A DNA stretch of 64,000 nucleotides, taken from contig NW_019217977.1 in NCBI RefSeq assembly GCF_002571385.2, positions 46,829 through 110,828 of the forward strand. Direction: 5' to 3'. Source of the stretch: Stylophora pistillata. Lineage: Eukaryota. Positions within the stretch are counted from its first letter, which is position 1. The number at the start of each line of letters is the position of its first letter. The position numbers were made by a program, and so were the translations under genes. A model generated the notes under the pieces. The model saw only the letters and a list, made by a program, of their open reading frames with translations. It had not been told where the DNA came from and ran no database searches. Shown one piece after another: positions 131 through 1,234 of the stretch.

Positions 131-1234
131 TTACAGCTTGTTCACAACTATATCGAGCCATTGTAGGTAATTTTCCTTCTTTTTAAAATCAACTTTTACG
201 TCACTACTAGCTCCCTCACTGAAGGAGACTGATCCGCTCAGGCTTGCGAGAGGGCATCCTGAGTGAAGTGAAAGTATGGCATGTGTGTGAAAATCTCCTA
301 CATCGGCAAAATATTGCTTCTTGAAAGCTTCCATGCTCTCAATTACCTCCGCCTTGCAGGATGTAAAGCATTCTGGATGTTGCTGGTAAGCCTCGTGAAG
401 AACACTAAGGTTTTCATTGCCCATTAACTTAAAGACCTTTGCGGTATTCTTACGTATGGTGGTTGCTCTGTTATTAATGAGCAGATGTATTTTCGGCGTA
501 TCGAGCTTGTACTCTTTCATATTGTGACTGAACGTGTATTTCCGATAAGCTTGAAAATCATCAGGTTGATCATCCGGAGGTATGCCATACACTAAATCCA
601 ACATTGCACGAACAGCCTGCTTGGAAAAATCATCTGCGTTGATTGGGATGATCAACTTGTTCGCTGCTGCGAGCGCTATTTCGGTATAAATCGAAAACGA
701 TGGATTGGTATCGATGAAAACGACCCATTGATTCCGGCTGTCTTGACTCACTCCTCTGATTCTCTTTTCTGAACCTTCAATGAATGACCTGATGGAGGTA
801 GTGACAGTCTTTCATGGCGTAACTCTGGGACTATCCATCCCGCGTCGGAAGTAGTCAAGACCACGAGTTGCCAACTCCAGGCACATGTCACCAGAAAGAA
901 GGTACAGATTGGAAGAAACTTGACTGTTGTAATCACTCACTCGGGTAAGATAATCGCTAGCGTATAACATTTTTGGCCCCAAATCAATCTGTTTTTCGAG
1001 ATAGAGGCTGATCGTCTTGTTCGCTCTGTACAAAGATGCCAGGAGATCGCAACCTTCTTTTTCGGGGGTGGTCAGTAAAGCCATCGAGATATTTGCTTGG
1101 GGACAAAGATCAATTACGGCAACGTTTACATTGGGGTTGCGCTGGGCATATCTTGTGGCCATGTGGAAAGTAAGAGTAGTCTTACCCACTCCACCTTTGT
1201 TGTTCCAGATAACGTAAGATTCCTTTAGCGGCAT
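131..1234 (-). pseudogene. Intronless ParA/MinD/Soj-family ATPase (367 codons) interrupted by one in-frame TGA at 812-814
   Basis: ORFs 812-1234 and 131-751 are in the same frame, joined by 20 open codons (...VTP*KTVTTSIRSFIEGSEKRIRGVSQDS...). Motifs: deviant Walker A NNKGGVGKTT, switch I DLCPQAN, Walker B/switch II FIDTNPS, and LIIP. Confidence 0.85.

Follow-up and report, generated by a model that had tools for sequence, protein, structure and literature searches.

A coral ParA-like ATPase gene with open and null alleles and its possible relation to an anti-phage protein of prophages

ATPases of the ParA/Soj type are regarded as prokaryotic. The aspartate of their Walker A' motif is catalytic, and its loss resulted in hydrolysis-deficient, ATP-bound dimers in several ParAs, but the D39A variant of McdA also lost DNA binding, as described in the accessible part of PMC8684754. 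As this McdA variant shows, loss of the aspartate does not always yield a working trapped dimer. In the context of phage defence, the accessible text of PMC12724215 describes GiPD474 as a single-gene anti-phage protein of Salmonella Gifsy prophages, which is encoded by a gene of 1086 nt beside a phage repressor and has the motif GGVGKT at positions 29-34. According to the same text, GiPD474 alone decreased the plating of T4 and Alf5 by about five logs and also blocked Felix O1, six other phages were spared, the mechanism is unknown, and homologues were reported only in Enterobacteriaceae with a filter of 70% identity. Furthermore, animal homologues of bacterial defence proteins have become an established theme, for which cGLR/STING, viperin, gasdermin, the SIR2-type SIRal and Tiamat stand as examples in the accessible parts of the corresponding literature.

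Here we describe a ParA-like ATPase gene in the genome of Stylophora pistillata. Our preferred reading, for which confidence and doubt are about balanced, is that the locus represents an allele, interrupted by a stop codon, of a coral gene that is present in single copy and belongs to a ParA-like subfamily common with bacteria, and that the intact protein likely acts as a stand-alone antiviral or defence factor.

The locus and its segregating stop codon

The gene is found on the minus strand at positions 131-1234 of the window, i.e. the whole analysed stretch of 64,000 nucleotides, and comprises 367 codons plus the stop codon. It matches the Pfam family AAA_31 (E 1.7e-19) and the PHROG family 164 'ParA-like' (E 5.9e-33), and its closest homologue, P0002, is intact and 80% identical over the full length. 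The GC content of 44% and the GC3 value of 47% are both inside the range of the window. The initial annotation had described an intronless gene of 367 codons with full ParA/Soj motifs. Its length was correct and no splice joint exists in the RNA contigs examined, but the frame is closed by a premature TGA at codon 141 (812-814, minus strand), which cuts it into 140 + 226 codons. Likewise, all three motifs are present on the minus strand, namely KGGVGKTT (codons 13-20, 1175-1198), a deviant Walker A motif that includes the signature lysine, the Walker A' motif DLCPQAN (codons 42-48, 1091-1111) and the Walker B region IDTNPS (codons 174-179, 698-715). The motif set is nevertheless not a complete one, because Cys44 of DLCPQ aligns with the catalytic Asp of Soj/ParA, i.e. 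with Asp41 of H. pylori Soj, the residue that has been altered in the D41A structures.

Upstream of the gene, positions 1235-1307 (minus strand) likely represent the 5' untranslated region, a weak assignment made from the polyA RNA contig ends at 1305 and 1307 (X8 and X20, two studies) next to a repeat that starts at about 1314 and may itself end contigs. This high-copy host repeat (1314-1435, without assigned strand) was recognized by its raised depth and many partial contigs, and its last 72 bases recur at 2717-2788 as direct repeat D1. A fragment of a Gypsy-type retroelement integrase region is situated at 1879-2319 on the minus strand (Pfam Integrase_H2C2, E 3.3e-11), which bears out the earlier statement that the gene is flanked by animal retroelements, and reverse-transcriptase pieces that appear LINE-like by their motifs occur to the left of the window. 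A public Stylophora pistillata gene model, P0088, which is identical to 40% of the gene, was rejected as a mis-annotation; it is a chimera of the integrase fragment, a part of the gene and a reverse-transcriptase piece.

The gene is coral host DNA. It is located on a contig of 532,626 bases, on which genes for GPCR, 3CxxC zinc-finger, ankyrin, TIR, glycosyltransferase and mitoribosomal proteins surround the locus. The locus stretch is present in 20 of the 24 listed runs, which come from 9 studies, and one of these runs may be the source sample; four RNA or RNA-like runs contain next to none of the words of the locus and are uninformative. In two DNA-like runs the depth of the gene matched that of its flank, with 113 vs 119 in X2 and 233 vs 285 in X4, and one contig crosses from the gene into the host repeat. 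Moreover, two homologues sit on an Oculina contig of 38.5 Mb. PolyA RNA contigs from two studies extend over the gene with no splice joint and show zero depth at 1417-2251, where the DNA-like runs continue, and this pattern suggests that the gene is transcribed.

A second copy was not found in the genome with four protein queries and the PF13614 model, searches that give a lower bound. Instead of the expanded family with intact copies elsewhere that had been suggested as possible, these searches found a single locus in the assembled genome, and intact versions exist in another sample and in other corals. The other matches in the genome, three on two contigs that are short or look bacterial and one more (C3439, C1353 and C2566; L002, L317 and L321), are ordinary bacterial-type ParA genes. 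These contigs are gene-dense, carry ORFs for ordinary Soj, plasmid-type ParA and helicase-like proteins, and are probably bacterial or plasmid contamination.

Eight of the 24 runs were compared with the locus, and seven of them cover codon 141. The codon reads TGA in four runs (X2, X4, X8, X20) and TGG in three (X14, X15, X19), among which the contigs of X15 and X19 are only about 4 deep. Since all 120 close homologues compared have Trp here and TGG occurs in three runs, the TGA is regarded as a one-base nonsense change. In X14, which is labelled as the same organism, a single contig spans the gene and has 37 differences, none of which gives a coding stop or a frameshift, and thus represents an open allele. 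Extra lesions were detected in TGA haplotypes: X8 has another stop at codon 356, and the start codon is lost on a contig of X20 with a depth of 2. The gene itself is real, its allele in the assembled genome is a null one, and open and null alleles segregate. The comparison of X14 with the reference revealed 5 silent and 23 replacement bases, a ratio of 1.27, for which p was 0.82 when compared with neutrality and 2e-5 when compared with a ratio of 0.2. Codons 1-132 (window 839-1234) are free of differences and all 29 coding ones are found in codons 133-367, a distribution that suggests recombination between divergent haplotypes. Collectively, these differences fit relaxed constraint or an old divergent haplotype that recombined, and neutral decay fits them equally well as diversifying selection.

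Several other explanations of the locus were weighed against these data. Bacterial contamination joined into the assembly might be considered, because contigs with bacterial-type ParA genes exist in the assembly, but the depth equal to the flank, the contigs reaching into the host repeat, the presence in 20 of the listed runs and the starred clade that the gene forms with named coral proteins make this practically negligible; judged by coverage, the check for a contaminant that accompanied the initial annotation came out in favour of host DNA. Recoding of the TGA as selenocysteine or by readthrough, which would leave the gene active, is hardly more probable: the TGA is the lone one in frame, occurs on several haplotypes and appears in polyA RNA contigs, but the invariant Trp of the homologues and the TGG alleles speak against a Sec/Cys position, and the TGA haplotypes have accumulated the second stop (X8) and, on the low-depth contig of X20, the start codon loss. 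A gene that is cargo of a mobile element or endogenous virus would explain the intronless structure, the adjoining retroelement pieces and the fact that many bacterial relatives are phage-borne. This origin is nonetheless improbable to a lesser but still considerable degree, because the gene exists as a single copy, the 72-base direct repeats flank the integrase fragment rather than the gene, and no viral gene was detected among the window ORFs scanned (10 of the 30 listed).

Some further features were recorded on the same contig. Two tandem single-ORF genes at 39797-40621 and 42684-43490 of the window (minus strand) are 76% identical and combine an N-terminal domain of unknown kind with TIR_2; they show weak matches to Thoeris ThsB and SAVED-TIR models and are possible immune genes. 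About 45 kb left of the window, a 3CxxC zinc-ribbon protein is encoded (L007:1312-1806, plus strand), with a domain known from antiviral RTP4 proteins. Together, the 3CxxC protein and the TIR pair hint at an immune-rich neighbourhood. Similar exons of a repeated gene family, one of which matches DUF4430, are situated at 14092-14406, 18437-19569 and 30372-30827 (minus strand). Finally, a tRNA-Thr gene is found at 60419-60491, and a tRNA-like stretch after a short gap at 3897-3975, which is not called by ARAGORN, is possibly a SINE.

Range in eukaryotes and ancestry

The first homologue search resulted in 2247 matches, of which the best 120 were 43-80% identical, the chimeric self record apart. 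The four of these 120 that bear a species name are all from corals. Intact homologues are present in four other coral species (Oculina, Pocillopora, Porites lobata and P. evermanni). The 42 close homologues placed in the tree, named corals and others, all belong to one starred clade, and for this reason close homologues without a species name are called coral here. A profile search identified 161 representatives at E 1e-30 or better; 19 of them were looked up and five bear the names of eukaryotes, namely Porites, Chromera velia, Adineta steineri, Corticium candelabrum and Stenamoeba stenopodia. Moreover, at least 13 Mytilus rows from five species were among the 120 listed in the sister-branch search, and three rows on contigs of 344,991 bases suggest a tandem group in Mytilus. 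The best full-length matches outside corals are from Chromera (231 bits) and Mytilus (228 bits), compared with 191 bits for Nostoc, the best bacterium among the loci examined. Judged from these sequences, the family has a patchy range that includes corals, mussels, a sponge, a rotifer, Chromera and an amoeba. Literature on an animal or eukaryotic ParA family was not found, but the searching was partly flooded by unrelated words and absence from print is not established.

The placement of the gene beside P0002 was obtained with FastTree (152 rows) and IQ-TREE (72 rows), inside a coral clade that has a support of 99-100. Both trees also recovered a wider group of corals with Mytilus, the sponge, the rotifer and Chromera, which was supported by 94 in FastTree and by an SH-aLRT of 98 in IQ-TREE, while the position of the root differed between them. 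In a mixture-model tree of 46 rows, for which 26 of the 72 were dropped (the six of the outgroup and 20 others that were long or redundant), the wider eukaryotic group received 85 and the animals together 64. The common ancestry with the bacterial ParA-like subfamily is firm, and the direction from bacteria to eukaryotes rests on the prokaryotic range of ParA. A first topology test that placed corals with 17 bacterial-side rows gave p 0.02 and was set aside, because it also forced Stenamoeba and three other rows across. In a fairer test with the corals held among bacteria, the p-AU value was 0.75 and the likelihood was above that of the free quick tree. With these trees, a single old acquisition by eukaryotes and several transfers cannot be told apart.

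In this regard, it has to be asked whether the coral gene came straight from a bacterium, independently of its acquisition by mussels, sponge, rotifer and protists. The p-AU value of 0.75 and the higher likelihood of the tree in which corals are among bacteria, apart from 17 other rows, are compatible with such a direct transfer, as is the intronless structure. A study of corals from 2016 also lists a coral-specific, bacteria-derived 'atpase domain-containing protein' of Seriatopora among transferred genes (Table 1, in the accessible part of PMC4878875). On the other hand, eukaryotic homologues outscore the bacterial ones, the free trees join corals to Mytilus, sponge, rotifer and Chromera (SH-aLRT 98 and support 85), and no bacterial sister of the coral branch was seen among the matches listed. 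We therefore consider the direct transfer, which concerns the origin only, as a serious but rather doubtful alternative. From the claim of a horizontally acquired gene, the membership in a bacterial ParA-like subfamily and the integration into a genome as part of a family common to related species can be retained, but a direct transfer from bacterium to coral is not supported by the comparisons, in which the best non-coral full-length matches are eukaryotic. The phylogeny proposed as a check likewise placed the gene in the ParA-like subfamily; the nesting within bacteria expected there was not rejected (p 0.75), and the free trees group the gene with other eukaryotes.

Bacterial relatives, active site and possible function

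The full-length bacterial relatives, at 28-35% identity, form a distinct subfamily, whereas ordinary ParAs match the N-terminal half only; the coral profile and plain Soj aligned over 141 columns. Members of the subfamily are encoded in the immunity regions of prophages, directly after the repressor in lambdoid ones, and also on P1-like plasmids, and a Nostoc plasmid harbours a subfamily member and a separate ParAB pair. Bacterial neighbourhoods were inspected for 61 loci in 12 sequence clusters, in which one locus was judged per cluster and 20 of the 39 listed flanking ORFs were scanned with Pfam. The member follows a cI-type repressor in three of the 12 clusters (52 loci) and precedes a RiboL-PSP-HEPN gene in three others. 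Single clusters each have it by Hachiman HamB, by PDC-M66AB or near an HNH nuclease, and three clusters are without a defence neighbour. No ParB was detected among the bacterial neighbours scanned, and the earlier statement that a ParB partner is missing in the window was confirmed in so far as the 10 window ORFs scanned, of 30 listed, contained no match. The PADLOC models did not match the coral proteins or P0545, and NCBIfam provided no specific family. Viral, genome and metagenome collections were also scanned by pattern, and the matches listed included nothing closely related to the coral branch; the ESM Atlas added generic ParA clusters only.

As a separate observation, the arrangement of a subfamily ParA followed by a RiboL-PSP-HEPN gene, whose HEPN protein has no PADLOC match, represents a candidate bacterial defence system. 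It was found in Microcoleus (L011:4995-6672), Poribacteria (L012:4995-6695) and a metagenome contig (L169:549-2233).

One member of this subfamily is an E. coli prophage protein that agrees with GiPD474 in its length, its genomic context and the place of the motif. S. Typhimurium proteins in which the motif is likewise at 29-34 belong to the 90% cluster of this protein, and they are likely GiPD474 itself, an identification made by length, motif position, species and context rather than by the accession WP_000368620.1. One of the S. Typhimurium proteins matched the coral profile along 324 columns with a probability of 100, and its identity to P0002 is 30% (E 9e-50). In the trees, the coral gene and the GiPD474-like proteins belong to one starred branch versus ordinary ParA, in which the eukaryotic rows have closer bacterial neighbours than the GiPD474-like branch. 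An identity of 30% to a GiPD474-like protein is no guarantee of a common role.

The active site is highly conserved among close homologues. The signature lysine K13 is present in 113 of 120 homologues with gaps in the other 7. The Walker A' Cys is shared by 116 of these 120 and by 17 of 17 bacterial members, whereas 17 of 17 outgroup ParAs have Asp. A pattern search for the Walker A' motif in 145 distant representatives assigned 72 to Cys, 9 to Asp and 5 to Ser, with 16 unparsed and 43 without a motif match. The longer representatives P0292, P0304, P0323, P0326, P0340, P0342, P0349 and P0350 represent a group with Asp at this position.

According to the predicted structure, P0002 (pLDDT 91.5) adopts a ParA/MinD fold that resembles Soj, P1 ParA and McdA, and Foldseek matched it to Soj/ParA with E 2e-9 and a TM of about 0.5 by query. 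The prediction of a homodimer with ATP and Mg scored 0.77, compared with 0.00 for the best control, at a pLDDT of 81 and with 81% contact agreement between runs; this score mark was attained for 21 of 30 solved pairs and 7 of 16 animal pairs but for 0 of 23 single chains, and since ParA dimers are already solved the pass may reflect structures known to the predictor. The P-loops and residues 117-128 and 203-233 meet in the interface, which also includes residues 12-16 in the Walker A region. Hence, the intact protein is predicted to form an ATP-sandwich homodimer as ParA proteins do, in which additional helices specific to the family contribute to the interface. Fused effector domains were not seen: of 7984 candidates, none with a length of 787-2245 residues scored, which is a weak indication.

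Regarding the function, our preferred reading combines these features as follows. A bacterial gene probably entered eukaryotes once long ago or several times, and would be gained, duplicated and lost like other immune genes. Lacking the catalytic Asp, the protein would hydrolyse ATP slowly and remain a stable dimer, and this ATP-bound dimer would by itself bind a protein or nucleic acid of the virus and thereby block it. The proposed block is modelled on the likely Salmonella relative GiPD474 and its effect on T4, Felix O1 and Alf5. A role in defence or positioning had been suggested for the gene; the bacterial relatives lend circumstantial support to the first part, so that by analogy a role in cell-autonomous defence is likely, while a standard positioning role is disfavoured because the catalytic Asp is replaced by Cys.

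The opposite view would be a non-immune cellular role in eukaryotes, for example the positioning or assembly of a structure or the regulation of a protein, at a locus that is simply decaying. The retained ParA/MinD fold with the signature lysine and the near-invariant active-site residues of close homologues would be explained in this way, and eukaryotic homologues of defence proteins can be repurposed, as reported in the accessible part of the Tiamat preprint. However, the scanned bacterial neighbours include no ParB and the Nostoc plasmid has its separate ParAB pair, the catalytic Asp that is required for positioning cycles is missing, and the patchy range, the many Mytilus paralogues and the segregating null alleles are unlike a core gene. 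A non-immune role thus seems unlikely, although it deserves consideration. Starting from the antiviral or defence reading, a wider proposal is that an antiviral family derived from a single-gene bacterial anti-phage system has gone unrecognised in corals, mussels, sponges, rotifers and several protists, and that this family would use a Cys-substituted, ATP-locked dimer and no fused effector. This proposal is tentative, and we regard it as somewhat improbable in its full extent. If it were true, the segregating working and null alleles in one reef coral would let the effect on infection be read from natural genotypes. Moreover, a branch in four animal phyla and protists that is tied to a phage-blocking protein would add a candidate to the few immune genes linking bacteria and animals, and the Asp-to-Cys change would offer a first mechanistic handle on GiPD474.

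Comparison with known systems

As far as can be judged from the sequences, the value of the locus lies in the family it belongs to, i.e. a ParB-less, Cys-substituted ParA branch that is patchy in animals and protists and tied to an anti-phage protein. The coral protein shares the deviant Walker A motif with the signature lysine, the Walker B region, the fold and the predicted ATP-sandwich dimer with ParA/Soj. It differs from them in that Cys replaces the catalytic Walker A' Asp, that it exceeds Soj by about 110 residues, that the identity is only 13-18% and that the ParB partner is missing, and its 53.9 bits with the NCBIfam ParA model NF041546 are far from the cut-off of 180. The eukaryotic SIMIBI ATPases NUBP/Mrp and Get3/ArsA, which are members of the same superclass and have the signature lysine, are more distant, because the coral protein has only a sub-threshold N-terminal match to NUBPL (20 of 27 bits) and its best structural matches are Soj/ParA.

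The protein of Seriatopora from the 2016 list may belong to the same ParA-like family, in which case the coral transfer itself would have been noted already. It comes from a related coral genus, and the wording of its entry also names bacterial subfamily members, but it is a table row only, may be another ATPase, and is linked neither to defence nor to other phyla in the accessible part of PMC4878875.

GiPD474 is similar in its ParA fold, its length of about 360 residues and the missing ParB, and its likely sequences have the motifs WNNKGGVGK and D-x-C-P-Q and the C-terminal extension in common with the coral protein at 30% full-length identity. In contrast to the prophage-borne and tested GiPD474, the coral gene is chromosomal, eukaryotic, broken in the assembled genome and known from sequence. 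The accessible part of PMC12724215 does not mention the Asp-to-Cys change. Finally, as described in the accessible literature on cGLR/STING, viperin, gasdermin, SIRal and Tiamat, these proteins resemble the coral family in their link to bacterial defence, a patchy eukaryotic range, and lineage-specific duplication and loss. Their effector or signalling chemistry is known, whereas the coral protein consists of a lone ATPase domain in which no effector was found.
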